This document shows positions 7,799 through 26,889 of a stretch of DNA of 64,000 nt, in pieces. The notes below the pieces were generated by a model. That model did no database searches. It saw only the letters and a program-made list of their open reading frames with translations, and had not been told where the DNA came from. Each line of letters begins with the position of its first letter. Positions within the stretch are counted from its first letter, which is position 1. Position numbers and translations under genes: made by a program. The stretch spans positions 16,256 to 80,255 of the forward strand of contig JBKQIP010000174.1 of NCBI GenBank assembly GCA_052148295.1. The letters are read 5' to 3'. Origin of the DNA: Acidimicrobiales bacterium. Its GTDB lineage: Bacteria; Actinomycetota; Acidimicrobiia; Acidimicrobiales; RAAP-2.

Positions 7799-7806
7799 AC
7801 CTGGCC

Positions 7807-10452: not shown

Positions 10453-10494
10453 AGCCGAAACCGGAACCGGAGCCGACGACGGGAGACCCGGTGC

Positions 10495-11337: not shown

Positions 11338-11361
11338 GGTCGGACCGTAGCATCGCCTGTC

Positions 11362-12852
11362 GTGCCTTCCTCGAGCCGCATCGCAGACCCGCGCACCCCG
11401 GTGCTGGTGGGCGTGGGTACCGCCCAGGACAGCGCCCCCGTCGTCGAACTGATGACCGCGGCGTGCCGGTCGGCCGCGCTCGATGCCGCGGCCCCGGCCC
11501 TGCTGCCCGCCCTCGACCGCATCGTGGTCCCCCAGGGAAGTTGGGCCCTGCCCGACCCCGCCCGGGCGGTGGCGGCGCGCCTCGGTGCCCGGTCGGCACG
11601 CACCTACCTGGGCCAGGTCGGCGTGTCCCAGCAGGAGTTGATCGATGACGCCCTGGAGTCCATCGCCGCCGGTCGGGCCGACGTGGTCATGGTGGTCGGC
11701 GGCGAGGCGCGCGCCTTCGCGCGCCGCGGCGGCGACGAGTCCCTGGGCGCGGACGAGGGGGTGACCCCCGATGTGACGCTCACCCGCCCGGCCGACTTCA
11801 TCGCACCGATCGAGGTGGCCGCCGGCACGGTGTGGCCCGTGGTCCAGCAGTACGCGCTGATCGAGAACGCGCTGGCCGCCCACGAGCACCAAGATGCCGA
11901 CGCGCTGGCCCGCGACGTCTCCCGGCTGTGGGCCCGCTTCAACGAGGTGGCCCAGGGCAACGAGCTGGCCGCCTTCCCCGCTCCCCGCACCGCCGCGTCC
12001 ATCGCCACGCCCGGGCCCAAGAACCGGCCGCTGTCCCACCCCTACAACCTGTGGCATTCCAGCCAGTGGACCGTCGACCAGGCGGCCGCCCTCCTGCTCT
12101 GCTCGGCGGAGCGGGCCGGAGGGGCCGGGGTCCCGGCCGACCGCTACGCCTTCCCCCACGTGGCCCTGCACGCCTCCCACGCCATCACCCTCACGGCGCG
12201 CAAGGACCTGCACGCCTGGCCGGCCATGGCGGTGCTGGGTCGCCTCGCCGCCGGACATCTCCGCGCCCCCCTGGGCGAGCTGCCGCTGGCCGACGTCTAC
12301 TCCTGCTTCCCGTCCTCCGTGCGGGTGCAGCAGCGTGCCCTCGGCCTCGACCCCGAGGGGACGCCGACGGTGACCGGTGGCATGGCCTTCGCCGGCGGGC
12401 CGTTCAACAACTACGTCCTGCAGTCCACCGCCGCGCTCATCCGCCTGCTGCGCCACCGGCCGGCCGAGCGCGGGCTGGTCACCACCGTGTCGGGCATGCT
12501 GTCCAAGCCGGGACTGGCCGTATGGTCCTGCTCCCCGCCGCCCCCGGGCCGCGGGACCCTGATGGCCGATGTGGCCGACGACGCGGCCGCGGCCACCGAG
12601 ACGCTCCCCGTGGCCGCCCCCGAGGCCTCGCGGGGCCCGGCCACGGTGGCCTCGTACACCGTCACCTACGAGACCGGTGCCGACGGCGCCGGCGACCCCC
12701 CGCGCCCGCGGCGGACGGTGATCGTGGCCGACCTGGGCGACGGGAGGCGGACCGCCGCCGCCTGCGAGGATGAGTCCCTGGCCCGCCGCGCCCTGAGCGA
12801 GTCGCTCATCGGGCGGCCGGTCCACATCGACGGCGCCACCTTCACCCCATGA
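11362..12852 (+). CDS. Thiolase-fold protein (acetyl-CoA acetyltransferase-like) with a C-terminal OB-fold-like extension
   Basis: This is the real part of track ORF 10606..12852, from GTG 11362 (VPSSSRIADPRTPVLVGVGTAQ). Thiolase-like blocks are ADVVMVVGGEA and GGMAFAGGPFNNY. The tail GPATVASYTVTYE...RTVIVADLGDGRR resembles the OB part of DUF35 proteins. Confidence 0.6.
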   Translation: MPSSSRIADPRTPVLVGVGTAQDSAPVVELMTAACRSAALDAAAPALLPALDRIVVPQGSWALPDPARAVAARLGARSARTYLGQVGVSQQELIDDALESIAAGRADVVMVVGGEARAFARRGGDESLGADEGVTPDVTLTRPADFIAPIEVAAGTVWPVVQQYALIENALAAHEHQDADALARDVSRLWARFNEVAQGNELAAFPAPRTAASIATPGPKNRPLSHPYNLWHSSQWTVDQAAALLLCSAERAGGAGVPADRYAFPHVALHASHAITLTARKDLHAWPAMAVLGRLAAGHLRAPLGELPLADVYSCFPSSVRVQQRALGLDPEGTPTVTGGMAFAGGPFNNYVLQSTAALIRLLRHRPAERGLVTTVSGMLSKPGLAVWSCSPPPPGRGTLMADVADDAAAATETLPVAAPEASRGPATVASYTVTYETGADGAGDPPRPRRTVIVADLGDGRRTAAACEDESLARRALSESLIGRPVHIDGATFTP

Positions 12853-14558
12853 CCACCTCCCCGTCCACCCGCCTGCGCTCCCGCCCCCGGCTCGTCCCCC
12901 CCGAGCTGGCGGCCCGGGTACCCTCCCTGCGCGCCGCCGGCGCGGTCGCCCTCGTCCTCGGCGCCCTGACCGCCGCCGCCATCGTCGTCCAGGCCGTGGC
13001 CGTCGCCACCGCCGTGGACCGGTCGCTCCTCCACCACGCCTCGCTGCGCGACGTGCGTCCCCAGCTCGTCGCCATCGTCGTGGCCGTGGTGGCGCGCGGG
13101 GTCCTGCACTGGCTGGGGGAGGTGTCGGCCCAGCGGACGGCGGAGTCGGTGGCCCGCACCCTGCGCGGCCAGCTGCTGCGCCACACCCTCGACCTCGGCC
13201 CCGGTTGGCTGGCCGGCGAGCGGCCGGGGGAGCTCTCGCTCACCGCCACCAGGGGGCTCCGATCGCTGCACACCTACTTCGCCCGCTACGTCCCCCAGGC
13301 CGCGACGGCCGCCGTCGTTCCCGTCCTGCTCCTCGTGTGGGTGGGCACCCAGAGCTGGCTGGCCCTGGTGGTGGTGCTGGCGCTGCTGGCCGCCGTGCCG
13401 GTGACCATGGTCCACTTCGGACGGGAGGCCACCCGCCGCACCGAGCGCCAGTGGCGTCGCCTCGGTTCCCTGGCCGGCCGCTTCCTCCAGCTCATCGAGG
13501 GCCTTCCCACCCTGCGCGCCTTCGGGCGAGAGGGCCACGGGCGCCGCGAGGTGGCGGCCTCCTCGGACGGCGTCCGCACCGCCACCATGCGGACGCTGCG
13601 CGTGGCCTTCCTCTCCGCGCTGGCCATGGACATGATCGCCGCGTTCGGCGTCGGCCTCATGGCCATGGTGCTGGGCCTGAAGCTGCTGTGGGGAGAGCTG
13701 AGCCTGCAGACCGCCATGGCCGTCCTGCTGGTCGCCCCGGAGATCTTCATGCCGCTGCGCCGGGCCGGCGCCGAGTTCCACGCCAGCGCGGAGGGACAGG
13801 CCGCGGCGGCACGCGTGCTGGACGTGCTCGCCGTGCCCTCGCCGCACGTCGCCGCCGGCGAGCCTGCGCCCCGTGGCGCCTCGCCCTCCCCGCAGGTCAC
13901 CCTGTCCATCGACCGGCTGGGCCTCGCCTATGACGATCGCGCCGTCCCGGCCCTGCACGAATTCTCGCTGCTGGTGCCCCCCGGTGATCGCGTCGCGCTG
14001 GTCGGTCCGTCGGGTGCGGGGAAGTCGTCGGTCGTGGCCGCCCTGCTCGGCTTCGTCCGGCCCACCTCCGGCAGCATGTCGGTCGACGGGATGCCGTCGA
14101 CGGCGTGGACCATCGCGGCCTGGCGTGCCCACTTCTCCGCCCTGCCGCAACGGCCCCACCTCTTCACGGCGTCGCTGGCGGAGAACCTGCGCCTGGGGGC
14201 ACCCGAGGCCACGGACCAGGACCTGCACGAGGTCCTCGGCGCCGTCGGGCTGCGGGCGCTGGTGAGCCACCTCCCCCGGGGCCTTGACACCGCTCTGGGT
14301 CAGGACGGGTTGACGCTGAGCGCGGGCGAGCGCCAGCGGGTGGCCCTGGCCCGCGCCCTGCTGCGCCCCGCCCCGGTGCTCCTGCTCGATGAGCCCACGG
14401 CCTCGCTCGACCCGGCGACCGCGTCGGCTCTGGCCACGGCGATCGAGCCGTACCTGGTCGGCCGCAGCGTGGTCGTGGTCGGCCACGAGCCGGTGCTCCT
14501 CCCCCACTTCGACGCCGTGGTGCAGCTCGGCGCCCGCCCGACCCTGGCGGTGTCGTGA
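12849..14558 (+). CDS. cydD: ABC exporter, fused permease/ATPase, CydD-like (thiol reductant exporter)
   Basis: Six-helix TMD followed by an NBD with Walker A GPSGAGKSS, signature LSAGERQRVALARAL and Walker B LLLDEPT. It pairs with the next gene by a 4-nt overlap, as in cydDC. No cydAB is adjacent, so the symbol is tentative. Confidence 0.6.
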   Translation: MTTSPSTRLRSRPRLVPPELAARVPSLRAAGAVALVLGALTAAAIVVQAVAVATAVDRSLLHHASLRDVRPQLVAIVVAVVARGVLHWLGEVSAQRTAESVARTLRGQLLRHTLDLGPGWLAGERPGELSLTATRGLRSLHTYFARYVPQAATAAVVPVLLLVWVGTQSWLALVVVLALLAAVPVTMVHFGREATRRTERQWRRLGSLAGRFLQLIEGLPTLRAFGREGHGRREVAASSDGVRTATMRTLRVAFLSALAMDMIAAFGVGLMAMVLGLKLLWGELSLQTAMAVLLVAPEIFMPLRRAGAEFHASAEGQAAAARVLDVLAVPSPHVAAGEPAPRGASPSPQVTLSIDRLGLAYDDRAVPALHEFSLLVPPGDRVALVGPSGAGKSSVVAALLGFVRPTSGSMSVDGMPSTAWTIAAWRAHFSALPQRPHLFTASLAENLRLGAPEATDQDLHEVLGAVGLRALVSHLPRGLDTALGQDGLTLSAGERQRVALARALLRPAPVLLLDEPTASLDPATASALATAIEPYLVGRSVVVVGHEPVLLPHFDAVVQLGARPTLAVS

Positions 14559-16204
14559 GGCCCCTGCGCCGGATATGGCGCGAGCCGGGAACGCCGTACG
14601 GGCGCCTGGCCCTGGCCGGCGCGCTCGGGCTCCTCTCGGCGGCGGCCACCATCGCCCTCATGGCCGGGTCGGGCTACGTCCTGGGTCGGGCCGCCCAGCG
14701 CCCGGGACTGGACGCGCTGGTCGGGATACTGGCGGCGGTCGAGGTGGTGGCCTTCCTGCGCGGACCCCTGCGCTACGCCGAGCGCCTGGTGGGCCACGAC
14801 GCCGCCCTGCGGGCCCTGGCCGGGTGGCGCATCTGGCTCTACGACTGCCTGACGCCACGCGTGCCCGCTGCCCTGGCCGGCTGGCGCAGCGGCGACCTCT
14901 TGACCCGCGCCATCGACGACGTCGACACCCTGCAGGACCTCTACCTCCGCACCGTGCTGCCCCTCGGTGTGGCCCTGGGTGCCGCCCTGCTGGGTCTGGT
15001 CGTGGTCGGCCTCATCCTGCCCGTGGCCGTCCTCGCCCTGGGCGTCCCACTGCTGATCGCCTGCACCGTGCCACCGGCCCTGGTCTGGCGGCCCGGTGCC
15101 GACGACGAGGAGTCGGCCCTGGCGGGGGAGATCTCGGCGCACGTGGTCGACATGATCCACGGGGCGGCCGACCTCCTGGCCTTCGGCGCCGAAGATTCCG
15201 CCTTCGGCCGGCTGGACGAGATGAGCCGGCGGTCCGAGGCCCTGGCGCGCCGCCAGCACCGGTCGGCCGCGCTGGCCGCCTTCACGACGCAACTGTGCGT
15301 GGGCGCGGCGCTGACCGCGGTCCTGGCCGTCGCCGTGTCCGCCGTGCACGCGCACCACCTCGACCCGGTCATGGTGGCCGTCCTGCCCCTGGCCGCCCTG
15401 GCCACGTTCGAGCCGGTCCCCGGCGTGACCCAGGGCACGGCCCGCGCCCTGGCGGTCCGCGCCGCCGCCCGCCGCCTCCTGGCCCTCGAGGCCGTGCCGG
15501 TCCCGATCGGCGACCCCGGCGTCCCCCGCTCGCTCCCCGAGGGCACGCCGGACGTCTCCTTCGCGCGGGCGTCGTTGCGCTACGGGCCCGGGCTGCCCCG
15601 GGCGCTCGACCGGGTCGACCTGCACCTGGCCCCGGGAGGACGGGTGGCCGTGACCGGCTCCAGTGGCGCCGGCAAATCCTCCCTGGTCAACGCCCTCCTT
15701 CGCTTCTGGCCGCTGGAGGGCGGCACGTTGCAGCTGGGCCACGTGGCGACCGACGAGCTGACGCAGGCCGAGGTGCGGGCCGCCTGCGCCCTAGTCGACC
15801 AGCGCGCCCAGTTGTTCGCCGGCACGCTGCGGTCCAACCTGACCCTGGGACGCCCCGACGCCACCGATGAGGAGATCGGCAGGGCCCTCGACGCCGCCCA
15901 GCTCAGCGGCTGGGTGGCCGGGCTCCCGGCCGGCTTGGAGACGCCCGTCGGTGATGAGGGCGTCGCCCTCTCCGGAGGCGAGCGCAGGAGGGTGACCGTG
16001 GCCCGAGCGCTCCTGGCCGGCGGCCGGGTGCTCGTGCTCGACGAGCCGACCTCCGGACTCGACGACGAGGTGGCCGACCGGCTCATCGGCGACGTCTTCC
16101 GCGCCGCGGGCGATCACAGCGTCCTCCTGATCACCCACCGGCCCGCGGAGGCCGACCGCTGCCAGACCACCGTCACCCTCGAGGCGGGCCGCGCCGTTCC
16201 CTGA
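14555..16204 (+). CDS. cydC: ABC exporter, fused permease/ATPase, CydC-like
   Basis: TMD plus NBD with Walker A GSSGAGKSS, signature LSGGERRRVTVARAL and Walker B LVLDEPT. The GTGA overlap with the previous gene fits a heterodimeric exporter. Confidence 0.6.
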   Translation: MRPLRRIWREPGTPYGRLALAGALGLLSAAATIALMAGSGYVLGRAAQRPGLDALVGILAAVEVVAFLRGPLRYAERLVGHDAALRALAGWRIWLYDCLTPRVPAALAGWRSGDLLTRAIDDVDTLQDLYLRTVLPLGVALGAALLGLVVVGLILPVAVLALGVPLLIACTVPPALVWRPGADDEESALAGEISAHVVDMIHGAADLLAFGAEDSAFGRLDEMSRRSEALARRQHRSAALAAFTTQLCVGAALTAVLAVAVSAVHAHHLDPVMVAVLPLAALATFEPVPGVTQGTARALAVRAAARRLLALEAVPVPIGDPGVPRSLPEGTPDVSFARASLRYGPGLPRALDRVDLHLAPGGRVAVTGSSGAGKSSLVNALLRFWPLEGGTLQLGHVATDELTQAEVRAACALVDQRAQLFAGTLRSNLTLGRPDATDEEIGRALDAAQLSGWVAGLPAGLETPVGDEGVALSGGERRRVTVARALLAGGRVLVLDEPTSGLDDEVADRLIGDVFRAAGDHSVLLITHRPAEADRCQTTVTLEAGRAVP

Positions 16205-16321: not shown

Positions 16322-16434
16322 CCACCCTCCGGCCCCGTCGGCGGAGACCCGGCACCCGAAATGCCTGCATGGGGGCTGTCCGGCCAGCGACGAGATACCC
16401 GGGTGTGACCTGCCCTTACCGAGCGCTTACCGTG

Positions 16435-17907
16435 ATGGCGCACAGTGAGCGGCGTGAGAGACTGCGCAGCAACCGGCGTCGGGCGAAGGAGGACAACGTG
16501 CCCGGTTCGGGTCCAGTGCCCACCGGGTACGGAAGCGTCGCAGTCGCGGCCGACCGTCGGGGAAGAAGGGTTGACTCGGAAGCGGGGGACGCGCCGGTGA
16601 TGGTGACGACGGAAACCGTGAGCGCCGTGCGGACGCTGCCCGTCCCCCCTGGCTCGCGCCCCCGCTCCACGCCGGTGCGCCTCCGCGTCTTCGCCGTGGC
16701 GTTGGTCCTCCTGGTCGTGCTGGCCGGACTGGTGGCCGGCCTGGCCACGTCCAACCGACAGAGTGCGACCACGGCGGCGGCCCAACAGGCGGAGCCGCTG
16801 CTGGTCTCGGCGCAGACCATCAACACGTCACTCTCCGACGCCGACAGCACGGCCGCCGCCTCGTTCCTGCGGGGCCGGCTCGAACCGGCGGCGCTTCGTG
16901 ACCGCTACGCCGCCGACGTGGATCAGGCCTCGACCGCACTGGCCACGGCCGCTCAGGAGGCAGGTACGGATCCCGCGGTCACGTCGTCATTGGCCGCTGT
17001 GTCGACCGAGGTGCCCGTCTACACCGGGCTGGTGCAGACGGCCCTCTTCAACGAGCGTCAGGCCTACTACCCGCTGGCCGCCTCCTACCTCGGCGAGGCC
17101 AACAACCTGATGCGCACCCGGATCCTGCCCGCCGCCACCCAGCTCTATGCCACCGAGCGCGCCCGTCTCGCCGCCGACGAGGGGAACGCGGTCAACCCGT
17201 GGCTGGCCGCCGCGGCGGGGCTCAGCGTGGCCGTCCTGCTGGTGCTGCTCGTAGGGGCCCAGTGGTGGATGAGCCGCCACTTCCGCCGGACGCTCAACGT
17301 TCCGCTGGTGACGGCCACCGTGCTCATCGCCGCCCTCGGTCTGTGGTTCGCCATCGCCCTGGTGGCCCAGGGCTCCGGCGTGACCACGGCCACGAGCCGG
17401 GGGTCGGGCCCCATCGACACCTACACGCAGGCCCGCATCCTCGCCCTCGAGATGCGGGCGGACGACGAGCTGACCCTGCTCACCCTGGACTCGGTGCCCA
17501 CGTACCAGCAGGACTACACCGCCGCCGCCGACCGCCTCGAGGCCCTGTTGGCCTCGTCGGGCGCGGTCGCAGGCGCCGAGCGGCCGCAGGCGGCGCACGC
17601 CCGCGCCGCCTTCGCCGCCTACACCAGAGTGCACCACCACATCCGCAGCCTGGACAGCGGGGGCAATCTGGACGGGGCCGACGCCGTGGCCTCCGGGCCG
17701 GCCGCGACGGATCTCCCGGCGGTGTCGTCGGATCTGGACACGGTGCTCACCGATGACATCTCCGGATCCCAGGGGACCTTCCACAGTGCGATGGCGGCGG
17801 CCACCGGAGATCTCGACGGCGTCCTCGTGGCCATCGCCCTGCTGGCGCTGATCTCGGCCGTGCTCGTCCTCGTCGGCTTCCAGTCCCGGATCGCGGAGTA
17901 CAGGTAG
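16435..17907 (+). CDS. glnX: GlnX-like integral membrane protein (4 TM helices with two long extracytoplasmic helical regions)
   Basis: Track ORF 16369..17907. TM segments are VFAVALVLLVVLAGLVAGLA, WLAAAAGLSVAVLLVLLVGAQWW, LVTATVLIAALGLWFAIALVA and LVAIALLALISAVLVLVGF. Its position directly upstream of glnH-pknG matches the known glnX-glnH-pknG arrangement. The start is uncertain (16369, 16435 or later). Confidence 0.7.
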   Translation: MAHSERRERLRSNRRRAKEDNVPGSGPVPTGYGSVAVAADRRGRRVDSEAGDAPVMVTTETVSAVRTLPVPPGSRPRSTPVRLRVFAVALVLLVVLAGLVAGLATSNRQSATTAAAQQAEPLLVSAQTINTSLSDADSTAAASFLRGRLEPAALRDRYAADVDQASTALATAAQEAGTDPAVTSSLAAVSTEVPVYTGLVQTALFNERQAYYPLAASYLGEANNLMRTRILPAATQLYATERARLAADEGNAVNPWLAAAAGLSVAVLLVLLVGAQWWMSRHFRRTLNVPLVTATVLIAALGLWFAIALVAQGSGVTTATSRGSGPIDTYTQARILALEMRADDELTLLTLDSVPTYQQDYTAAADRLEALLASSGAVAGAERPQAAHARAAFAAYTRVHHHIRSLDSGGNLDGADAVASGPAATDLPAVSSDLDTVLTDDISGSQGTFHSAMAAATGDLDGVLVAIALLALISAVLVLVGFQSRIAEYR

Positions 17908-17911
17908 GACC

Positions 17912-18925
17912 ATGCGACACCGTCACCCGACACCCCGGCGGCTCTCGCCCAGGACGATCACCGTCGTGCTGATCGGCACCGCGCTGGGCCTGGCCGGCTG
18001 CGGTACCGCTCCCGACGCGTCACGCCTCCCTCCGGCGGCGGTGCGGATGGCACCGCTCCTGCCCGCCTTTGCCGAGATCGTCCACCCCTCACCGCCCCCA
18101 CCGGCTCCGCCAGGTTGCACCGACCCGACGGCGAGCTCTGCACCTCCGGCCACCATGCCCGCCCCGGGCGACATGCCGGCCGGAAGCTGGATGTCCCACA
18201 TCCTCGCCCGGGGTTACCTGATCGTCGGGACCGGCCAGTCCACCTACGACTGGGGCTACCGGGACCCGGTCACGGGCCAGCTGAGCGGGTTCGACATCGA
18301 CATGCTGCGCCAGGTCAGCCAGGCGATCTTCGGCTCGCCGGACCGGATCCGCTTCGTGGTCGTCAACAACGACCAGCGGGTCCAGGCGGTACGGTCGGGC
18401 CAGGTCGACATCCTGGCCGAGACCATGACCATCAACTGCGCGCGTGAGAAGTACGTCGACTTCTCGACGGTCTACTTCGAGGCCGGTCAGGAGATCCTGG
18501 TGCCGACCGACTCGACCATCAGCGGCCCGTCCGACCTCAACGGAAAGCGCGTGTGCGCCACCTTCGGATCGACCTCCCTGCAGAACCTGGTCAAGGTGGC
18601 ACCCCGAGCCATTCTCTGGGCGGTTCAGAACGAGACCGACTGCCTTGTGATGCTCCAGCAGGGCCAGGTCGATGCCATCAGCACCGACAACGCGATCCTG
18701 CAGGGGCTGGCCGCCCAGGATCCCAACACCAAGATCGTGGGACCGCCCTTCACCTCCGAGCCCTACGGCATGGCCATCAGCAAGGCCCACCCCGAATTCA
18801 CGTCGTTCGTGAACGGCGTGTTGGCCCAAGAGCGGGCCGACGGCACCTGGGCCGCCATCTACGAGAAATGGCTGGGTCCCAACCCGCCGGCTCCGCCGGT
18901 GGCCACCTACACGGAGGCACCATGA
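17912..18925 (+). CDS. glnH: GlnH-like periplasmic amino-acid (Asp/Glu/Gln)-binding lipoprotein, SBP family 3
   Basis: Lipobox LGLAGCG. Blocks YDWGYRDPVTGQLSGFDIDMLR, ETMTINCAREKYVDFSTVYFEAGQ, GKRVCATFGSTS and DAISTDNAILQGLAAQDP closely resemble mycobacterial GlnH as I remember it. Confidence 0.85.
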   Translation: MRHRHPTPRRLSPRTITVVLIGTALGLAGCGTAPDASRLPPAAVRMAPLLPAFAEIVHPSPPPPAPPGCTDPTASSAPPATMPAPGDMPAGSWMSHILARGYLIVGTGQSTYDWGYRDPVTGQLSGFDIDMLRQVSQAIFGSPDRIRFVVVNNDQRVQAVRSGQVDILAETMTINCAREKYVDFSTVYFEAGQEILVPTDSTISGPSDLNGKRVCATFGSTSLQNLVKVAPRAILWAVQNETDCLVMLQQGQVDAISTDNAILQGLAAQDPNTKIVGPPFTSEPYGMAISKAHPEFTSFVNGVLAQERADGTWAAIYEKWLGPNPPAPPVATYTEAP

Positions 18926-20130
18926 GCACCCCGTCGCTCGACGCCATCGACCGGCGCCTCGCGAAGGTGGACACGATCGTGCAGCACATGGGGGAGAACC
19001 TGGTCGAACTCGACGCCGACGTCACCCGCCAGATGCTCGGAGCCTCCCCGAGCCTCACGGGACGGACAGCCGAGGCCTGGCGGCTGGCCGACGCGCAGCT
19101 GGCCGATCTCTGGCGCGGCCACGTCGCGCTGAAGGATCTCCTCGAGGCGATCGCCCATGAGCGCGGCACCAGGTCGTCCGTCCCCAGGGCCGCCCTCGGT
19201 CGCGTGGCCGCCCTGCTGGACGGGCCGTCGGTCTCACTGCCCAGCCCCGACCCGACCGGGCACCGCACCCTGACCGAGGGGGCGGACCCAACGGTCCCGT
19301 GCACGATCGACGAGCTGATCGACCAGATGTCCGCCGGCTACGACTCGGTGGTGGCGCTGGTCACGGCCGTGGGGTCGGTCTGGACCGAGACGGTGCCGGA
19401 GCTCACGGCGCTCGAGGCGCAGGTCGACCGGCTCGAGGCCACGGTCCGCGAGACCGGGTGCCGCCCGCCGAACGACCTGGCCGCCGCCCGGCGGGCCCTG
19501 GCGGAGGCCCAGGCGACGGCCCGCCATGACCCTCTCTCCCTCCCCGCCGGACTCGCACCGTCCATCACCGTCACGGTGGACCGGGCCACGGCATCGATCC
19601 GGGACGCCGCCGCGGCGAACCGGCAGCTGGCCGCCGAGAGAGCCGATCTCTCCTCGGCGCTCGACGACGGCGATGCCCGCCTGCGCCGTGCCCGCGCCGA
19701 ATGTCGGGCCATCGTCGAGAGGATCGTGCTGCCCCACACGGTCTGGGAGGATCTCGACCGGGCCGAAGCCGAGCTCGTCGGGCTGCACGCCGAGTTCGCC
19801 GCCCTGACCGCAACCGCCGGCGACGGGGCGGCGGCGCGTCGGTCGGTGGCCGCGCTGGCGCGGCGCACCGACCGCCTCAGTCGACACCTGGCGCGGCTCG
19901 AGGATTGTGGCGCCACCGACCTGGCCAAGCGCGACGAGCTGCGGGGCCGTCTCGACGCCTACCGGGCCAAGGCTCGGGCCATCGGCCTGGGTGAGGACAT
20001 CGAGCTCGACCGTCGCCAACGCGAGGCCGACGAGCTCCTCTACAGCGCACCGTGCGACGTTCGGCGGGCCGAGGATCTCGTATCCCAGTTCGAGCGCGCC
20101 GTCCGGGCCGGTGACGAGGGGGCGCGGTGA
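18922..20130 (+). CDS. Hypothetical all-helical (coiled-coil-like) cytoplasmic protein, 402 aa
   Basis: This is the in-frame part of track ORF 18553..20130, from ATG 18922. ATGA overlaps the glnH stop and GTGA overlaps the pknG start. It is Ala/Leu/Arg/Glu/Asp-rich with heptad-like stretches (LTALEAQVDRLEATVRE, ELRGRLDAYRAKARAIGL). No TM segment or recognisable enzymatic motif is present. Confidence 0.7.
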   Translation: MSTPSLDAIDRRLAKVDTIVQHMGENLVELDADVTRQMLGASPSLTGRTAEAWRLADAQLADLWRGHVALKDLLEAIAHERGTRSSVPRAALGRVAALLDGPSVSLPSPDPTGHRTLTEGADPTVPCTIDELIDQMSAGYDSVVALVTAVGSVWTETVPELTALEAQVDRLEATVRETGCRPPNDLAAARRALAEAQATARHDPLSLPAGLAPSITVTVDRATASIRDAAAANRQLAAERADLSSALDDGDARLRRARAECRAIVERIVLPHTVWEDLDRAEAELVGLHAEFAALTATAGDGAAARRSVAALARRTDRLSRHLARLEDCGATDLAKRDELRGRLDAYRAKARAIGLGEDIELDRRQREADELLYSAPCDVRRAEDLVSQFERAVRAGDEGAR

Positions 20131-22517
20131 CGGCGACCTGCGAGCGACCCGCGTGCACCGGTCAGATGGTGGACGGGTACTGCGACGTCTGCGGCCTGGC
20201 CCCCGCGGATCCCTCTCGGCGTACGACGGGGCTGGGCCGACCGCCGTCGCCGGTGACCAGGGGCAGCGACCCCCAGCCGTGCGGCCGACCCGGATGCGAC
20301 GGGAAGATCGAGGACGGGTACTGCGATGTCTGCGGCCTGGCCCCTTCGGGTCCGTCCTCGCGCACGGCGGGGCTGGGCGCGGGGCCGACCGCGGGGACCA
20401 GCGGCTCCGCCTCGTCCCTGGGCACGGCGACCTTCCGGTCGGGTACCGGCACGGCCACGGGGCAGCACACCGGTGCCGGCTCGCGCCGCGACCGGGGCCA
20501 CCTCGGTGCCGGTCTCGTCGAGATACCCGCCGTCCCCTCCCGCGACCCGCTGTCCGTGGTGCTGGCCGACCCCGAGGTCCCCGAGCGCAAGCGCACCTGC
20601 GCCCGCTGCGGGCATCCGGTCGGGCGGAACCACGAGGGTCGGCTCGCCCGCACCGAGGGCTTCTGCCCGCACTGCGGTGCGGCCTACTCGTTCACGCCCA
20701 AGCTCAGGCCCGGCGACGTCGTGGGCGGCCAGTACCAGGTGACGGGATGCATCGCCCATGGCGGCCTGGGCTGGATCTACCTGGCCCAAGACTTGAATCT
20801 GGACGGCAAGTGGGTGGTGCTCAAGGGCCTGCTCGACTCCAACGACGAGTCGGCGAAGGCGGCGGCGATCGCCGAACGCCGCTTCTTGATCGAGGTCGAT
20901 CATCCCGACATCGTCAAGATCTACAACTTCGTCCAGCACGAGGACGCCGGCTACATCGTGATGGAGTACGTCGGCGGGGCATCCCTGCGGGAGGTGCGCA
21001 ACCGTTGCCGGGACGAGACCGGCGCTCCCCTGCCGGTGGCGCAGGCCATTGCCTACGCGCTCGAGATCCTTCCCGCCTTCGGATATCTGCACCGCCGCGG
21101 GTTGCTCTATTGCGACTTCAAGCCGGACAACGTGATCCAGACCCACGAGCAACTCAAGCTCATCGACCTGGGGGGCGTCCGCGCCATCGGCGACGAGGAC
21201 AGCGATCTCTACGGCACCGTCGGCTACCAGGCACCCGAGGTACCCGAGGACGGGGCATCGATCTCGTCCGACCTCTACACCGTGGCCCGGACCCTGGCGG
21301 TGCTCAGCCTCGATCTCCCCGGCTTCCAGGACGAGAAGCGCTTCGCCACCAGCCTGCCACCGGCGCGTGAGGTCCCCCTGTTCGGCCGCTACGAGTCGTT
21401 TCACCGGTTCCTCAAGAAGGCCACTGCCGCCGATCCGGCCGCCCGCTTCCAGACGGCGGCCGAGATGGCCGACCAGCTGCTCGGCGTGCTGCGGGAGGTC
21501 GTCGCCCTCGACGGCGGCCAGCCGGCGCCCGCGCCGAGCGCCCACTTCAGCGCCGAACTCGGCCCGGCCACCGACGCCGGCGCCTGGCCGGACCTGCCCG
21601 TTCCCTCCGTCGACCCCTTCGACCCGGCCGCCGGGCTGTTGGCCACAGCGGCGCTCTCCAGCCCTGACCAGGTCCGGTCCATCCTCGAATCGGCTCCCCC
21701 CTCGCCAGAGCTGGCCTACCACTTGGCCCGCTCCCTCATCGAGGAGGGGGACTTCGCCGGGGCCGAGCGCCAGCTCGAGACGCCCGAAGCCGGCATGTCC
21801 GCCTGGCGCGTGGCCTGGTGGCGGGGTGTGCTGCACCTGGCCGCCGACCGACCCCGCGTGGCCCAGACCTTCTTTGCCGTGGTGGCGGGCGAGCTCCCGG
21901 GGGAACTGGCGCCGAAGCTGGCCCTGGCGCTCGCTCTCGAGAACGCGGCGGACCGCTCCGGTTCGTCGCCCCCCGGCGGGAGCACGGTCCCCACCGGTGC
22001 CGACGACGTGGACGAGGCGGCCCGCCTCTACGACCTCGTCGCCGCCACCGACCCGGGGTTCGCCAGCGCGAGCTTCGGACTGTGCCGGGTGCGGCTGTCC
22101 CGCCGGGACCGCGACGGCGCGGCGGCGGCACTGGCGCGCATCGCCGCCTCCTCCGGGGCCCACCAGGCGGCGCAGACCGCCCTGTGCCGCCTGCGCTGTG
22201 CGGATATGGGCGGCGTGCCGCCGGGCCTGAGCGACCTCGCCTCGGCCGCCGCGGTCCTCGAGCACCTGAAGGTCGAGCCCTCGCTGCGCCTCCCATTGCT
22301 GCGCGATCTGCTGGGTCAGGCCCTCCGTGTGCTCACCGATGGGCGGGCCGCCCCGGACGAGCACACGGTTCTCGTCGGCACACCCTTCACCGAGGTCGAC
22401 GTCCGGGCGGCCCTCGAGCGGACGTACCGGTCGCTGGCCAAGCTGGCCGGGACCGACGGCGAGCGCTTCGAGCTGGTCGACCTGGCCAACGCCCATCGCC
22501 CGCGGACCCTGACATGA
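20127..22517 (+). CDS. pknG: Ser/Thr protein kinase PknG (two extra N-terminal Zn-ribbons, rubredoxin-like CxxCG pair, kinase domain, TPR domain)
   Basis: Rubredoxin motif: CARCGHPV...CPHCGAAYSF. Kinase blocks: GGQYQVTGCIAHGGLGWIYLAQD, VVLKGLL, AERRFLIEVDHPDIVKIYNF, GYIVMEYVGG, LLYCDFKPDNVI and LIDLGGV (the DLG variant typical of PknG). TPR block: WRVAWWRGVLHL...FPGELAPKLALALALE...ASASFGLCRVRL. Confidence 0.9.
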   Translation: MTATCERPACTGQMVDGYCDVCGLAPADPSRRTTGLGRPPSPVTRGSDPQPCGRPGCDGKIEDGYCDVCGLAPSGPSSRTAGLGAGPTAGTSGSASSLGTATFRSGTGTATGQHTGAGSRRDRGHLGAGLVEIPAVPSRDPLSVVLADPEVPERKRTCARCGHPVGRNHEGRLARTEGFCPHCGAAYSFTPKLRPGDVVGGQYQVTGCIAHGGLGWIYLAQDLNLDGKWVVLKGLLDSNDESAKAAAIAERRFLIEVDHPDIVKIYNFVQHEDAGYIVMEYVGGASLREVRNRCRDETGAPLPVAQAIAYALEILPAFGYLHRRGLLYCDFKPDNVIQTHEQLKLIDLGGVRAIGDEDSDLYGTVGYQAPEVPEDGASISSDLYTVARTLAVLSLDLPGFQDEKRFATSLPPAREVPLFGRYESFHRFLKKATAADPAARFQTAAEMADQLLGVLREVVALDGGQPAPAPSAHFSAELGPATDAGAWPDLPVPSVDPFDPAAGLLATAALSSPDQVRSILESAPPSPELAYHLARSLIEEGDFAGAERQLETPEAGMSAWRVAWWRGVLHLAADRPRVAQTFFAVVAGELPGELAPKLALALALENAADRSGSSPPGGSTVPTGADDVDEAARLYDLVAATDPGFASASFGLCRVRLSRRDRDGAAAALARIAASSGAHQAAQTALCRLRCADMGGVPPGLSDLASAAAVLEHLKVEPSLRLPLLRDLLGQALRVLTDGRAAPDEHTVLVGTPFTEVDVRAALERTYRSLAKLAGTDGERFELVDLANAHRPRTLT
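20171..20354 (+). repeat. Intragenic direct repeat: two 33-nt copies (20171-20203 and 20322-20354, 1 mismatch) encoding the duplicated DGYCDVCGLAP zinc-ribbon knuckle
   Basis: Read directly: ggacgggtactgcgaCgtctgcggcctggcccc versus ggacgggtactgcgaTgtctgcggcctggcccc, 151 nt apart. The two protein repeats are C-x4-C-x9-C-x2-C modules (CERPACTGQMVDGYCDVCG and CGRPGCDGKIEDGYCDVCG). Confidence 0.9.
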
Positions 22518-23506
22518 GCACGACCGAACCGGGCGGGGCGGAGATGGCGCAGGAGGACTGCGCCGGCTGCGGTGCGCCCATGTTCGAGCAGGAGCGCTTC
22601 TGTGAGGTCTGCGGGGCGCGGGTGGGTCCCGAGCCCGAGCCGGAGCCCGATCCCCCCCGGCCCACTGCGCCGATGCAGCGGGTGGAGCAGGACCTCGGCG
22701 TGGTGGCCGCCGTGTCGGACCGCGGCCGGCGTCGGCCGCGCAATGAGGACGCCATGGCCCTGGCCACCTTCGAGGGTCGCAGCGCGGTGGTGGTGTGCGA
22801 CGGGGTGGCGTCGACCGCCAATGCCCACGAGGCCTCCCGGGTCGCGGTGGAGATGGCGATCCGGGTGCTCGAGGCGGCGCTGCGCCACCCTCCGTCCGAC
22901 CCCGAAGCCTGGGACCGACTCTTCGTCGAGGCGTGCGCCGAAGCACAGATCGCGGTGGCCGACGTGGATGCCGAAGGGAGCGGCCTCGCGCCCTCGACGA
23001 CCCTCGTCGCCGTGATGGCCACGCCGGGCCTCATCGCGGTGGCCAACATCGGCGACAGCCGCGCCTACCTGCTCGACGGCACACCCGAGGGGGGACGATG
23101 CCTCACCGTCGACGACACCTGGGCCGAGGAGATGATCGCGGACGGAGATCCACCGGAGCTGGCGTACGCCGACCCCGACGCGCGCACGATCACCCGGTGG
23201 GTGGGGGCGGACGCGGCATCGGTGCGGCCCGCGGTGACCGTGAGCGCGGTCGACCGGCCCGGCGTGGTCGTCGTGTGCACCGACGGCCTGTGGGACTACT
23301 TCGACCGGCCGTCGGCCCTGGCCGCGCTGGCGGAAGAGCCGGCCGGCTCGGCGCCGCTGGCCCTCGCCCGGCGCCTGGTCGAAGCGGCGCTGGCGGCCGG
23401 CGGCCGGGACAACGTGACGGTCGCCGTGGTGCCGGTGGCACCGGCGGTTGCGGGCGCCACACCGGGATCCGCGGTACCGACCATCGAAACGACGAGCGAG
23501 GAGTGA
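22514..23506 (+). CDS. PP2C-family Ser/Thr phosphatase with N-terminal zinc ribbon
   Basis: ATG 22514 overlaps the pknG stop (ATGA). Zn ribbon: CAGCGAPMFEQERFCEVCGARV. PP2C motifs: RRRPRNEDA, VVCDGVAS, IGDSRAYL, CTDGLWD and GGRDNVTVAVV. Confidence 0.9.
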   Translation: MSTTEPGGAEMAQEDCAGCGAPMFEQERFCEVCGARVGPEPEPEPDPPRPTAPMQRVEQDLGVVAAVSDRGRRRPRNEDAMALATFEGRSAVVVCDGVASTANAHEASRVAVEMAIRVLEAALRHPPSDPEAWDRLFVEACAEAQIAVADVDAEGSGLAPSTTLVAVMATPGLIAVANIGDSRAYLLDGTPEGGRCLTVDDTWAEEMIADGDPPELAYADPDARTITRWVGADAASVRPAVTVSAVDRPGVVVVCTDGLWDYFDRPSALAALAEEPAGSAPLALARRLVEAALAAGGRDNVTVAVVPVAPAVAGATPGSAVPTIETTSEE

Positions 23507-23511
23507 GCACC

Positions 23512-24783
23512 ATGCCCGAGTTCCGCATCGAAGCGTTCCAGAACGAGTTCCTCCCCGATGGGGCCCGCGTGATGAACGCCGTGGTCACGGTGACCGCCGA
23601 GGGGACCGCCAACGGTGCCGGCGCGGCCGGGCCGGCGGCCGACCGGGCCGAGGTGATAGTGCTCGACACGTCCGGTTCGATGGATGGGAAGAAGCTCCGC
23701 GAGGCCAAGGCGGCCACGGCGGCTGCCATCGACTGCCTCCCCGACGGCGTCCGCTTCGCCATCGTCCAAGGCAATCACCAGGCGGACCTGGTGTACCCGA
23801 CCTCGGCACGGCTGGCCGTCTCCTCGCCCACCGCCCGCGACGCGGCGAAGAGGTCGACCAAGAAGCTCGCCGCCGGCGGTGGTACCGCGTTCGGAACCTG
23901 GATCCGCCTCACCGCCCAGCTCCTCGACGACGAGCCGGGCCTCCGACACGCCATCCTGCTCACCGACGGCAAGAACGAGAGCGAGGCCCCCGGAGGCCTC
24001 GAGGACGCGTTGGTCCAGGCCGAAGGGGTCTTCCAGTGCGACTGCCGGGGGGTGGGCAGTGACTGGCAGGTGGCCGATCTGCGCCAGATCGCCACCGCCC
24101 TCCTCGGGACCTACGACATCGTCGCCGATGCGTCCGGGCTCAGCGCGGACTTCGCCGCCATGATGCACGACGCCCTCAGCAAGGAGGTCGCCGAGGTCAC
24201 GCTGCGAGTCTGGGCGCCCCAGGGTGCCGCGGTGGAGCTGGTCAAGCAAATGGCACCGGTCATGATCGATCTGGCCCCGTTGCGCGCCGAGGCGGGGCCG
24301 TTGGTCGTCGACTACGCCACCGGCTCGTGGGGTGACGAGTCCCGCGACTACTACGTGAGTGTGCGGGTGCCCCCGGGGCAGGTCGGCGACGAGATGCTGG
24401 CGGCGCGGCTCACCCTCCTGGTCGGCGGTGAGCCAGCGGGACAGGCCCTCATCAGGGCCGTGTGGACCGACGACACCGCCAAATCGACCCAGATCAACGG
24501 GCGGGTGGCCGAGGCCATGGGCGAGAAGGAGCTGGCCGACGCCATACAGGGAGGGGTCGACGCCCTGCGTGACGGCGACACCGACACGGCGACGAGCCGC
24601 TTCGGCCTGGCCAGGCGACTGGCTGCCGGGACCGGGAACGACGACGCCCTGGCCCGCCTGGACGCGGTGGTGGTGGAGGCGGACCCGCTGACCGGTCGAG
24701 TGCGGCTCAAGGGAACGGTCGACGACATGGACGTGATGATCCTCGAGGCCAAGTCGACGCGCACGGTGCGGACACGCAAATGA
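23512..24783 (+). CDS. von Willebrand factor A (vWA) domain protein with an uncharacterised ~230-aa C-terminal region
   Basis: ATG 23512 lies 5 nt after the PP2C stop. MIDAS motifs are VLDTSGSMDG, AGGGTAFG and LLTDGKNE. The C-terminal half has no motif I recognise. Confidence 0.85.
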   Translation: MPEFRIEAFQNEFLPDGARVMNAVVTVTAEGTANGAGAAGPAADRAEVIVLDTSGSMDGKKLREAKAATAAAIDCLPDGVRFAIVQGNHQADLVYPTSARLAVSSPTARDAAKRSTKKLAAGGGTAFGTWIRLTAQLLDDEPGLRHAILLTDGKNESEAPGGLEDALVQAEGVFQCDCRGVGSDWQVADLRQIATALLGTYDIVADASGLSADFAAMMHDALSKEVAEVTLRVWAPQGAAVELVKQMAPVMIDLAPLRAEAGPLVVDYATGSWGDESRDYYVSVRVPPGQVGDEMLAARLTLLVGGEPAGQALIRAVWTDDTAKSTQINGRVAEAMGEKELADAIQGGVDALRDGDTDTATSRFGLARRLAAGTGNDDALARLDAVVVEADPLTGRVRLKGTVDDMDVMILEAKSTRTVRTRK

Positions 24784-26228
24784 GTGAGAAGAGCTCGAAC
24801 GGGTCCGCCGCCGCACCGCGTCCGGCGAGCGCGAGGACCCCGACGGCGACGGCGGAGCCGGAACCCTCGCGGCAGTGCCCGAACTGCGGGTCGTTCCCCG
24901 AGACGGAGGCGGCCTGCGTGGAGTGCGGCTACCGCTTCGACGCGCCGGACAGCGTCCCGGTGTGGGACGAGCAGCTCTGGGAGGTGGTGGTGCGCCCGGA
25001 CCGCCAGTACTACGAGATGATCGAGCCCGACGGTCTGGAGTTCCCCGAGGCGCCGCACAACCGGCGCGTCGCCCTCCTCGGCGACCATGTGCGCATCGGG
25101 CGGCGCAGCACGCGACGGGGCATCACCCCCGAGATCGACCTGTCGGGGACCCTCGAGGACGTGGGCGTGTCGCACCGCCATGCCGTGCTCATGCGCCAAC
25201 CCACCGGCGACTGGGCCCTGGTCGATCAGGACTCGGCGAACGGCACCTATCTCAACGCCGACCGGGACCCCATTACCCCCAACCACCGGGTGCCGCTGCG
25301 GGACGGTGACCAGATCCACGTCGGAGCCTGGACGACCCTGACCGTCGAGCGGGCCGAGGCCGGCGGGAGCAGATCGGCCGAGGTCAGCACCCCTTCGAAG
25401 GACACCCGCAACGTGGCCCGGAGCCGGCTGGACCTCGAGATCGGCCTGCTCGGGCCGCTCCAGGTCGCCGTGGCCGGGACGGTGACGAGCATCACCGCGC
25501 CCAAGGCCCGCGCCGTGCTGGCCCTGCTGGCCCTGCGCATCGGATCCGCCGTGACGACCGGGGACCTCGAGTGGGCCTTGTGGGGGGACGACGAACCGAG
25601 GACGGCGGACACGGCCCTGCGGGGCTACATCTCGGCGCTGCGGCACATCCTCCCGGCCGGGGCCATCGAGACCACACCGCAGGGCTATCGGTTCACCGGA
25701 CCGAAAGAGATCGTCGACATCCACCGTTTCGAGCGTCGGAGCGTGCGGGGTCGAGAGCTGCTCGCCTCGGGCCACCCCGGGTCCGCGGTGGCCGAAATCA
25801 CCCGGGCCCTCGACCTCTGGCGGGGGGACCCGATCCCCGACCTGGCCGACGGCCCGGCCGGCCTCAGCGAGGTGACCCGCCTGCGCGAGCGCAAGGCGGG
25901 CACCGAAGAGGACCTGTTCGAGGGCCGCCTGCAGCTGGGCGACCACCAGGGTGTCCTCCCCGACCTCAGCGTGGCCGTCGAGGCGGAGCCGCTGCGCGAG
26001 CGGAGGTGGAGACAGCTCATGCTCGCCCTCTACCGCGACAGCCGGCAGGCGGAAGCCCTGCAGGCCTTCCAGCGCTTCCGCGCCATCCTCGGCGAGGAGC
26101 ACGGGGTCGAGCCCTCGGCCGCGATCGGGGACCTGGAGCGGGACATCGTGCTGGACAAGCCCGAGCTGCGCTGGACCCCGCCCGGCACGGCCGGCACGGC
26201 CGGCGGGGCGCCGGCTACCTCGGGTTGA
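24780..26228 (+). CDS. Zn-ribbon + FHA + SARP/AfsR-type (winged-helix + BTAD) transcriptional regulator
   Basis: ATGA overlaps the vWA stop. Zn ribbon: CPNCGSFPETEAACVECGYRF. FHA: VRIGRR...GVSHRHAVL...DSANGTYLN...GDQIHVG. wHTH: IGLLGPLQVAV...ALLALLAL...TALRGYISALRHIL. BTAD: RERRWRQLMLALYRDSRQAEALQAFQRFRAILGEEHGVEPS. Confidence 0.85.
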   Translation: MSEKSSNGSAAAPRPASARTPTATAEPEPSRQCPNCGSFPETEAACVECGYRFDAPDSVPVWDEQLWEVVVRPDRQYYEMIEPDGLEFPEAPHNRRVALLGDHVRIGRRSTRRGITPEIDLSGTLEDVGVSHRHAVLMRQPTGDWALVDQDSANGTYLNADRDPITPNHRVPLRDGDQIHVGAWTTLTVERAEAGGSRSAEVSTPSKDTRNVARSRLDLEIGLLGPLQVAVAGTVTSITAPKARAVLALLALRIGSAVTTGDLEWALWGDDEPRTADTALRGYISALRHILPAGAIETTPQGYRFTGPKEIVDIHRFERRSVRGRELLASGHPGSAVAEITRALDLWRGDPIPDLADGPAGLSEVTRLRERKAGTEEDLFEGRLQLGDHQGVLPDLSVAVEAEPLRERRWRQLMLALYRDSRQAEALQAFQRFRAILGEEHGVEPSAAIGDLERDIVLDKPELRWTPPGTAGTAGGAPATSG

Positions 26229-26889
26229 CGGGTGGGGGCTCGGCGACCCCGGCCTGGCGCCGCCTGATCTCCACCACCGTCGGGGCCGGGTACTCGGTGT
26301 CGCCCGGACGCCAACCCGAGGCCACCTTCTGCATGCCGGCACCGCCCTCGGCCCAGACGTGGCAGGTGTTGGTCAGCCACTCCATGCCGCCCCCACCCAG
26401 GGTGTGCTCGCCGTCGCCGTGCTCCACCCGGTAGGCGCCGGACGAGGTGATGGCCTGGATGACCACCGGGCCCAGGGCGCGGGCCAGGAACTCGAGATGG
26501 CTGCAGCCCCGCTCCCGCCCGAAGCGGGACTGGACGGCGCTGGTGTAGCCGCGCGAGACGGACAGGCCCACCAGCTCGGCGAAGGAGTCCTCGATGGTCG
26601 GGCACTCCGCGTGGGGGAACGTGCCCATGGTGGCCCGGGCGTCGACGATGACCAGATCGGACCGTCGCACCACGATCCCCAGTTCCATCCCGTGCAGGTC
26701 CCGCGGGCCGAGCGCTCCACTGGCCCACGGGCGCTGATCGAGCAGCGTGCCGATGACCACGTGGTACCCGTCGCGCTCGAACACCTCCACCTGTATGACC
26801 CGGCGGTGCACCGGCGTGTCCTCCCCGCCCGCGGCCGGGCGCAGTTCGGCCAGGCGGGGCGACCGGTCGGGCCCGGTGAGATCAGTCAC
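26215..26889 (-). CDS. DUF2889-like protein
   Basis: Track ORF of 224 aa. The GRERGCSHLEFLARALGPVVIQAI block and the FPHAECP motif resemble DUF2889 as I recall it. It is convergent with the previous gene and overlaps it by 14 nt. Confidence 0.5.
   Translation of the reverse strand: MTDLTGPDRSPRLAELRPAAGGEDTPVHRRVIQVEVFERDGYHVVIGTLLDQRPWASGALGPRDLHGMELGIVVRRSDLVIVDARATMGTFPHAECPTIEDSFAELVGLSVSRGYTSAVQSRFGRERGCSHLEFLARALGPVVIQAITSSGAYRVEHGDGEHTLGGGGMEWLTNTCHVWAEGGAGMQKVASGWRPGDTEYPAPTVVEIRRRQAGVAEPPPVNPR

Follow-up and report, generated by a model that had tools for sequence, protein, structure and literature searches.

Seven genes in a stretch of 64,000 nucleotides from contig JBKQIP010000174.1 of an Acidimicrobiales bacterium (hereafter, the window; G+C about 72%) are read here, with moderate confidence, as an extended and self-contained PknG signalling operon with an Arn-like vWA/FHA switch and SARP autoregulation. 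The genes are glnX, glnH, hel, pknG and those of a PP2C phosphatase, a von Willebrand factor A (vWA) protein and an FHA-SARP protein. PknG is a kinase of virulence and of metabolic control. To our knowledge, nearly all work on it concerns Mycobacterium and Corynebacterium, in which the operon comprises three genes and the GarA/OdhI output is encoded elsewhere. A broader proposal is put forward tentatively, our doubts outweighing our confidence: that the seven-gene unit could be the ancestral PknG system of Actinomycetota and the three-gene operon a stripped-down relic of it, and that its core could be a bacterial counterpart of ArnA/ArnB with a shared zinc-ribbon 'address tag' and, in Acidimicrobiales, a SARP-fused and autoregulated path.

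Organization of the operon

The seven genes are as follows.

glnX: 16600–17907, + strand; GlnX-family membrane signal transducer of 435 amino acids from a revised start (NCBIfam NF058618, 350.7 bits, cut-off 250).
glnH: 17912–18925, + strand; lipoprotein solute-binding protein (Pfam SBP_bac_3) with a signal peptide and the lipobox LAGC.
hel: 18922–20130, + strand; cytoplasmic all-alpha protein of 402 amino acids with repeated helical bundles.
pknG: 20127–22517, + strand; two N-terminal zinc ribbons, a Ser/Thr-rich linker (T100-A-T-F-R), then rubredoxin, kinase and TPR domains.
PP2C: 22514–23506, + strand; phosphatase with an N-terminal zinc ribbon of the form C-x2-C-x10-C-x2-C (Pfam PP2C_2, 4.9e-17).
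vWA: 23512–24783, + strand; protein of the ArnB/4FX5 type with a vWA domain, a middle domain and a C-terminal helical domain (Pfam VWA and VWA_3_C).
FHA-SARP: 24780–26228, + strand; zinc ribbon (C33–C49), FHA domain (104–182), winged helix (240–305) and BTAD (312–456).

All seven open reading frames have a coding-type G+C distribution over the codon positions, with third-position G+C (GC3) of 0.88–0.93. The stop codon of glnX (TAG, 17905–17907) is followed after a gap of 4 nt by the ATG of glnH at 17912, and a gap of 5 nt separates the PP2C stop codon (TGA, 23504–23506) from the ATG of the vWA gene at 23512. The remaining junctions are overlaps: ATGA at 18922–18925 (glnH/hel), GTGA at 20127–20130 (hel/pknG), ATGA at 22514–22517 (pknG/PP2C) and ATGA at 24780–24783 (vWA/FHA-SARP). 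From these junctions the seven genes are translationally coupled. Upstream, a gap of about 230 bp separates the operon from an ABC-exporter gene with its end at 16204; the downstream limit is a convergent DUF2889 gene (26215–26889, - strand), which overlaps the last stop codon. A preliminary description of this DNA had already listed the seven same-strand genes and six tight junctions, and the coordinates agree throughout. The domain assignments that it gave to the seven products hold in Pfam and NCBIfam profile searches, Hel being a helical protein with no family match.

The kinase and the phosphatase

Judged by its sequence, the kinase is a true PknG. Pfam profiles identify PknG_rubred (1.5e-29), Pkinase and PknG_TPR (4.4e-55), so that both PknG-specific domains flank a non-RD kinase core, and the match to PknG of Mycobacterium tuberculosis (hereafter, Mtb; PDB code: 2pzi) extends over both halves of the protein with E=2.9e-138. 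The kinase residues K233, D330, N335 and D347 and the rubredoxin cysteines are invariant. A pattern resembling the tail of the vWA protein, TxT[VFILM]R, was considered as a general motif of PknG linkers and rejected; it occurs in the FHA-SARP clade only.

In the translation of the phosphatase gene the PP2C catalytic motifs RNED, DGV, TDGLWD and DNVT are readable, and an NCBIfam Stp1-type model matches below its cut-off. A C4 zinc ribbon stands at the N-terminus of the kinase (as two copies), the phosphatase and the FHA protein.

Recurrence of the gene order and history of the long form

Loci for comparison were collected by scanning one genome per species with a PknG alignment and keeping the best 80, onto which the seven proteins of the window were mapped; the count of 80 fully flanked loci used below takes in loci fetched by other routes. 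A locus with PP2C and vWA genes directly 3' of pknG is termed long form, and one without PP2C and vWA genes short form. Presence/absence tables made with tblastn only can miss genes: for Streptomyces locus L003 it returned no match for PknG, although the protein (11359–13770) is intact and about 50% identical to that of the window when aligned with MAFFT, and this locus was entered by hand.

The order GlnX-GlnH-Hel-PknG-PP2C-vWA-FHA recurs in 56 of the 80 fully flanked PknG loci, spread over three actinobacterial classes, and because of this conservation the operon is more than a chance arrangement. The vWA gene is followed by an FHA gene in 55 of the 56 long-form loci, and the 24 loci without PP2C and vWA have no such gene (0/24). 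N-terminal zinc ribbons are present on 55 of 57 long-form kinases and on none of the canonical, short-form (three-gene) kinases. Homologues of Hel from Actinoplanes, a metagenome-assembled genome (MAG) and Streptomyces likewise lie within the identical seven-gene order. The long form is found in Solirubrobacterales (Thermoleophilia), in Microthrixaceae and Ilumatobacteraceae (Acidimicrobiia), and in Micromonosporaceae, Streptomyces, Kitasatospora, Nocardia, Kribbella, Nocardioides, Intrasporangiaceae, Catenulisporales and Streptosporangiales-type genera, as well as in one Candidatus Dormiibacterota MAG. The three-gene form was seen in this sample in Pseudonocardiaceae only; the glnX-glnH-pknG arrangement is also that of Mycobacterium and Corynebacterium (PMC6069109; PMC8546545).

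The rubredoxin and kinase core was used for a neighbour-joining tree (339 columns, no outgroup root), in which the short-form kinases form one clade (100/100). Mtb PknG groups with the long-form kinases of Nocardia with a bootstrap value of 99/100, inside the sampled long-form kinases, and the window PknG groups with those of other Acidimicrobiia. The placement of the window kinase in the PknG clade, as proposed in the preliminary description, is thereby borne out.

The same description had taken the operon for two modules merged in this organism, and an alternative reading can be built on that idea, in which GlnX-GlnH-PknG was fused in this lineage with a TerY-P triad, the FHA-SARP protein reads phosphothreonines of the PknG N-terminus as GarA does, and the vWA protein is a passive scaffold or side substrate. 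The gene set does fit a triad of vWA, PP2C and kinase. In M. tuberculosis and C. glutamicum, N-terminal threonines that PknG has autophosphorylated serve to recruit its FHA substrate (PMC8546545). The N-terminal linker of the kinase here is rich in Ser/Thr, and GarA and OdhI are among the best bacterial matches of the FHA part. The history of the operon speaks for loss rather than fusion, since the long form is common and deep-branching and Mtb PknG is nested inside it. Loss of the four genes in some lineages is therefore more likely, on these sequences, than a merger in the lineage of the window, and the three-gene operon, which looks reduced, probably descends from the seven-gene order whose last gene is FHA-only; this polarity is drawn from distribution and nesting. 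The features of the vWA protein and of the kinase, described below, also count against the fusion, which we regard as unlikely.

The zinc-ribbon-FHA-SARP proteins comprise more than 100 clusters at 50–76% identity, of which the named ones come from Acidimicrobiales MAGs, and the seven such genes that were looked up are all the terminal gene of the same operon type. From these sequences the FHA-SARP fusion is special to this Acidimicrobiales clade, the FHA-only form being found elsewhere.

Several loci depart from the common plan. In the Candidatus Dormiibacterota MAG, outside Actinomycetota, a PknG-PP2C-vWA unit (L071, 8318–15224) has a GlnX-like gene downstream; its kinase nests among actinobacterial sequences in the tree, and horizontal transfer may be involved. 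A rearranged operon variant is seen in L029 (Microtetraspora) and L054 (Spirillospora): genes resembling glnX and glnH stand 3' of the FHA gene and not 5' of hel, and they show only 26–31% identity to those of the window. Three loci (L037, L038 and L074) hold PknG-type kinases with an N-terminal zinc ribbon, the other six genes being absent within 10 kb; the partners of these kinases, if any, must be encoded elsewhere.

The vWA and FHA proteins resemble ArnB and ArnA

The vWA protein matches the structure of caci_2163 from Catenulispora (PDB code: 4FX5) over its full length with E=7.5e-109. 4FX5 shares the tripartite fold of ArnB/vWA2, which consists of a vWA domain, a beta-sandwich and, at the C-terminus, a bundle of helices (PMC6509490), and by way of 4FX5 the architecture of ArnB can be assigned to the protein of the window; the match to the ArnB chain itself (8s05_A) is weak. 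The metal-ion-dependent adhesion site (MIDAS) motif is intact (D52-x-S54-x-S56). The C-terminal tail reads K-S-T416-R-T418-V-R-T-R-K in the window and is near-invariant across long-form loci as RSTKTVRV(K/R)K, with threonines that have a hydrophobic residue at +3.

The last protein of the operon matches the Pfam profiles FHA, Trans_reg_C (2.9e-6; 27.7 bits, cut-off 26.2) and BTAD (4.2e-38). Its C-terminal part has the SARP arrangement of an OmpR-type winged helix followed by BTAD, and matches AfsR and EmbR at about 1e-29. Among 52 homologues encoded by the last gene of such loci, the FHA domain is present in all (52/52), the zinc ribbon is matched by Pfam in 38 and the SARP part is found in two, namely that of the window and one other. 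The zinc-ribbon cysteines (C49 nearly so) are invariant in the 52 homologues, and the FHA residues G107, R108, S131, H134 and N154 are invariant or nearly so. An N-terminal C4 zinc ribbon joined to an FHA domain with intact phosphothreonine-binding residues, encoded beside a vWA gene, is the architecture of ArnA. For a zinc-ribbon-FHA homologue from Nocardia, the best solved relatives are ArnA (PDB code: 5A8I) and, from the complex that ArnA forms with ArnB in Sulfolobus acidocaldarius (PDB code: 8S05; PMC12852372), chain C. A specifically GarA/OdhI-like FHA domain was considered and rejected, the similarity being generic (E about 1e-5 to 1e-8).

In the archaeal system, ArnA attaches to ArnB through its zinc finger; once the C-terminus of ArnB has been phosphorylated by the kinase ArnC, the FHA domain of ArnA binds it, in a nutrient-dependent manner (PMC6509490; PMC12852372). 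Three features of the present operon type agree with such a scheme: a last protein with zinc ribbon and FHA domain, the near-invariant Thr-rich tail of the vWA protein, and zinc ribbons on the kinase that co-vary with the added genes. By analogy, we prefer to compare the vWA and zinc-ribbon-FHA pair with this switch rather than with the TerY-P triad, taken as defined in PMC11090510, because the vWA protein has no match in PADLOC, the kinase matches only generic models there and the pair has the Arn-type features. As regards the triad proposed in the preliminary description, the adjacency of vWA, PP2C and kinase genes stands, but a TerY-type vWA protein, a triad-type kinase and Ter or defence neighbours were not found. 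The zinc ribbons of the kinase are N-terminal, whereas the TerY-P kinase carries a C-terminal zinc ribbon or OB fold (PMC11090510). The vWA protein with its invariant Thr-rich tail is conserved as much as the kinase, which argues for an active role and not for that of a passive scaffold. Nor does it hold, as had been stated, that no work has revealed what such triads do: an anti-phage role has been reported for TerY-P-like modules (PMC11090510), and ArnA, ArnB and ArnC have been studied biochemically (PMC6509490; PMC12852372).

Those reports of TerY-P-like vWA/PP2C/kinase modules as stand-alone defence raise a further alternative, that the last three or four genes are an anti-phage or stress defence module of TerY-P type merely sharing a transcript with the sensor genes. 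In the PADLOC search the kinase domain does match the kinase models PD-T4-6 and mad6, but these matches are generic; the vWA protein has none, and the PP2C protein matches PDC-M21C only (E=4.9e-06). Moreover, synteny is kept across three classes and the kinase tree follows taxonomy, unlike mobile defence islands, and the flanks of the operon are without detectable nuclease, restriction, mobile-element and Ter/defence genes. A defence role of this kind is very improbable.

A separate observation comes from a 13.9-kb contig of JGI metagenome 3300047160 (P0360), where a protein of 785 amino acids consists of VWA and VWA_3_C fused to Trans_reg_C and BTAD. Its gene adjoins a gene for a sigma factor of the extracytoplasmic function (ECF) type and a small SARP gene. 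The fusion hints that such vWA proteins and SARPs work together physically.

A SARP-type promoter upstream of glnX

Two elements are located 5' of the operon.

SARP box: 16416–16432, + strand, TTACCGAGCGCTTACCG; direct repeat TTACCG-AGCGC-TTACCG, period 11 nt, at which the FHA-SARP protein of the operon is predicted to bind.
-10-like hexamer: 16441–16446, + strand, CACAGT; exactly 8 nt 3' of the second repeat.

SARP promoters follow a rule in which direct repeats are 11 or 22 bp apart and the 3' repeat stands 8 bp from the -10 element (PMC10936776), and the site 5' of glnX agrees with it in both repeat spacing and -10 distance. Transcription is predicted to start near 16453. The box is the sole exact match in the window, in which 0.25 matches are expected at up to one mismatch; matches with two mismatches are intragenic and occur in about the number due to chance. 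The first five loci, that of the window included, share TTACYG-N5-TKACCG upstream of glnX. After this pattern had been fixed, three further FHA-SARP loci were fetched and the box was present upstream of glnX in all three, giving 8/8 FHA-SARP loci as against 0/82 loci without SARP. In the alignment of the eight sites the repeat bases are invariant, as are A2 and T6 of the hexamer, while the flanks have diverged. A hexamer nAnnnT is found at the identical 8-nt distance in 10 of 11 sites in the eight loci. From the conserved box and a -10 element matching the SARP rule, autoregulation is predicted, and the operon appears to be controlled by the product of its last gene. The promoter 5' of glnX is new evidence, at the level of sequence, for a transcriptional output, and makes plausible the output that the preliminary description had predicted. 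A simple scan for sigma-70 promoters and terminators in this DNA of about 72% G+C gave nothing useful.

The promoter also bears on the start of glnX. The reading frame is open back to 16435, the start given in the preliminary description, and to 16369. The N-termini of GlnX homologues, however, align to the Met at 16600, GC3 falls from 0.92 in glnX to 0.75 in 16435–16599, and the ATG at 16435 lies between the SARP box and the -10-like hexamer and hence ahead of the point where transcription is predicted to begin. For these three reasons the start of glnX is most likely 16600 rather than 16435. The stretch 5' of 16600 is then probably a leader of about 150 nt, for which no family match was found in Rfam.

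SARPs are classically cluster-situated activators (PMC10936776), and the FHA-SARP protein might accordingly serve one pathway by activating metabolic or biosynthetic genes next to it, its position in the PknG operon being incidental. Three loci do have additional boxes, with the same -10 spacing, before adjacent genes (L002, 17519–17535; L084, 11551–11567; L085, 1254–1270, - strand). Yet the flanking genes differ among the FHA-SARP loci, the only box common to all eight is that upstream of glnX, and the window contains no second box at up to one mismatch. The start codon of the last gene, furthermore, overlaps the stop codon of vWA. We give this alternative little credence.

The genes behind the extra boxes are diverse. 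In L002 it encodes a second vWA paralogue of 810 amino acids, in L084 a protein of 357 amino acids without family, and in L085 a divergent secreted protein of about 466 amino acids with GYW..DGGVF..GDA repeats, a homologue of which occurs at the same place in L089. The genes from L084, L085 and L089 have no homologues in the window; only the second vWA gene of L002 has a match there, namely the vWA gene of the operon. None of the genes behind the extra boxes has an equivalent in the surroundings of this operon.

The sensor genes and Hel

The best solved relative of GlnH is M. tuberculosis GlnH (PDB code: 6h1u), with E=1.2e-72 compared with 1e-47 for the next solute-binding protein. The Asp/Glu pocket of Mtb GlnH involves R147, T162 and W232, and K161 via water, with W232 hydrogen-bonded to the side-chain carboxylate (PMC6069109). 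R147 and T162 are kept in the window protein, and S164T, R169 and D250 retain the contacts with the amino-acid backbone; W232 and K161 are both replaced by Glu. The signal sensed by GlnH is thus likely, on residue conservation, to be an amino acid, in accord with the preliminary description, but the specificity for Asp/Glu that it assumed is unsupported (W232E, K161E). All short-form loci keep W232, as do the two long-form loci of Nocardia that stand closest to M. tuberculosis. Among the GlnH homologues of loci L001–L083, the remaining long-form proteins have, by lineage, Q, H, R, F, I, D, A or E at this position, and this variation suggests that different lineages may sense different amino acids.

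Hel gave no match in Pfam-A (2025 copy), NCBIfam or PADLOC. Its AlphaFold2 model is all-alpha with a predicted local distance difference test score (pLDDT) of 92, and a fold search with the model returned no significant relative, the best being EzrA (E=0.08). The family comprises 2,546 representative clusters (50% identity, E<=1e-3). Hel lies directly 5' of pknG in 47 of the 56 long-form loci by hidden Markov model, with three more recognized from the gene list, and in 0 of 24 short-form loci. It may serve as a scaffold.

Proposed mechanism

By homology, the GlnH lipoprotein would bind an extracellular amino acid and GlnX would pass the signal through the membrane to the PknG TPR domain. Conserved linkage and the Arn precedent then suggest that PknG phosphorylates threonines of the vWA C-terminal tail; the N-terminal linker of the kinase itself may be a further substrate. 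The vWA phosphothreonines would be bound by the FHA domain of the last protein, with the N-terminal zinc ribbons of kinase, phosphatase and FHA protein docking onto vWA as a hub, and PP2C would reset the switch. The putative reader is only a zinc ribbon plus FHA domain in most actinobacteria, to which the Acidimicrobiales clade described here adds a SARP DNA-binding/activator domain. As the conserved promoter suggests, two FHA-SARP copies would bind TTACCG-N5-TTACCG, 8 nt 5' of the glnX -10 element, and the operon may so be autoregulated by amino-acid supply. Control could run in either direction, the phospho-complex either activating the SARP or sequestering it. In favour of such a pathway, the domains and the catalytic and binding residues are intact in all of the enzymes.

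A number of points weigh against this mechanism. The organism is a MAG, and every proposed step is a prediction from its sequence. The phospho-acceptor sites are guesses, and the linker motif of the kinase, TxT[VFL]R, is restricted to the SARP clade. The FHA domain could, by analogy with GarA and PknG, dock on the kinase and not on vWA. Sequence similarity to ArnA and ArnB is weak (E=7e-8 and 5e-3), so the Arn likeness rests mainly on architecture and on the published structural comparison. The exact ligand of GlnH is uncertain, and the sensing of Asp/Glu is not secure. The eight loci with the box are mutually related, and its conservation may in part reflect shared ancestry, though the flanks have diverged. 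With a single box in the window, and no second at up to one mismatch, a wider regulon is not visible there.

Neighbouring genes

Directly 5' of the operon is a same-strand gene run (9013–16204, + strand) which consists of an FAD/NAD-binding oxidoreductase, a 748-amino-acid protein with a weak thiolase-like C-terminal match and two genes for fused ABC exporters, which overlap by their start and stop codons. The genes of this run are not kept beside the operon in other loci. Further upstream (6416–7846, - strand) is a gene whose product joins a response-regulator receiver domain to an adenylate/guanylate cyclase catalytic domain.

Implications and comparison with known systems

The literature on GlnH, GlnX and PknG treats the operon as three genes and leaves the extra genes unmentioned. 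A survey of pknG neighbourhoods, which the preliminary description had called for, showed the arrangement to be widespread and the FHA-SARP fusion to be limited to the Acidimicrobiales clade, and no description of it was found. On the whole, the pathway outlined in that preliminary description stands, with four amendments: a probable origin by loss in other lineages, ArnA/ArnB as the nearest analogue in place of TerY-P, an uncertain GlnH ligand and a probable glnX start at 16600. The seven-gene unit is built of known families, is widespread in its FHA-only form, and appears to be undescribed as a unit in the literature searched. If the seven-gene form is the commoner and older one, the field has studied a reduced system, and the phosphatase, the vWA hub, Hel (about 2,500 clusters) and the operon-encoded FHA reader would be unstudied core parts. 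The ArnA/ArnB link would join nutrient-responsive phospho-switches of bacteria and archaea and, if true, the SARP-fused reader supplies a missing DNA-binding link for Arn-type modules. The precise DNA site predicted for the FHA-SARP variant makes the path from ligand to promoter testable in vitro. The arrangement is of high interest to specialists.

With the GlnH-GlnX-PknG-GarA/OdhI system of Mycobacterium and Corynebacterium the operon shares orthologous GlnX, GlnH and PknG in the same order, together with an FHA protein as the presumed reader. It differs in four added genes (Hel, PP2C, vWA and zinc-ribbon-FHA(-SARP)), with hel placed between glnH and pknG, in a kinase whose two N-terminal zinc ribbons canonical PknG does not have, and in the GlnH pocket, where Glu stands at the position of Mtb W232. 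GarA and OdhI are inhibitors of metabolic enzymes, whereas the gene for the FHA reader here belongs to the operon and its product is joined to a DNA-binding domain.

The TerY-P triad and the characterised Deinococcus DRA0331–0334 operon of vWA, kinase, FHA and PP2C also encode these domain types together (PMC11090510; bioRxiv 10.64898/2026.01.23.701218). Unlike in those systems, the kinase here is of the PknG type and has TPR and rubredoxin domains, Ter and restriction genes are absent from the neighbourhood, and the operon adds a dedicated sensor for an extracellular signal as well as a transcription factor.

The preliminary description knew of no characterised example, but EmbR with PknH is one of an FHA-SARP protein under a Ser/Thr kinase, with reversed domain order (PMC10936776; PMC9239209). 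EmbR and AfsR have the winged helix and BTAD in common with the protein described here, and EmbR also unites them with an FHA domain in one polypeptide and has a Ser/Thr kinase encoded nearby (PMC10936776; PMC9239209). The predicted glnX promoter likewise has the classic SARP layout. The zinc ribbon and FHA domain are N-terminal here, whereas EmbR has its FHA domain at the C-terminus; PknG takes the place of PknH as the partner kinase; and the protein is the last gene product of a sensor operon that is apparently autoregulated.

The likeness to ArnA/ArnB/ArnC lies in the genes for a zinc-finger-FHA protein and for a vWA/beta-sandwich/helix-bundle protein standing side by side, and, by analogy, in a Hanks-type kinase and a phosphatase as putative partners, the archaeal system responding to nutrients. 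The present system is bacterial, its sequence similarity to the Arn proteins is marginal, its kinase is PknG with an extracellular sensor and its phosphatase is PP2C, where that of the Arn system is PP2A. Finally, the route from ArnA/ArnB to transcription is not established, whereas the FHA protein described here has a DNA-binding output of its own.

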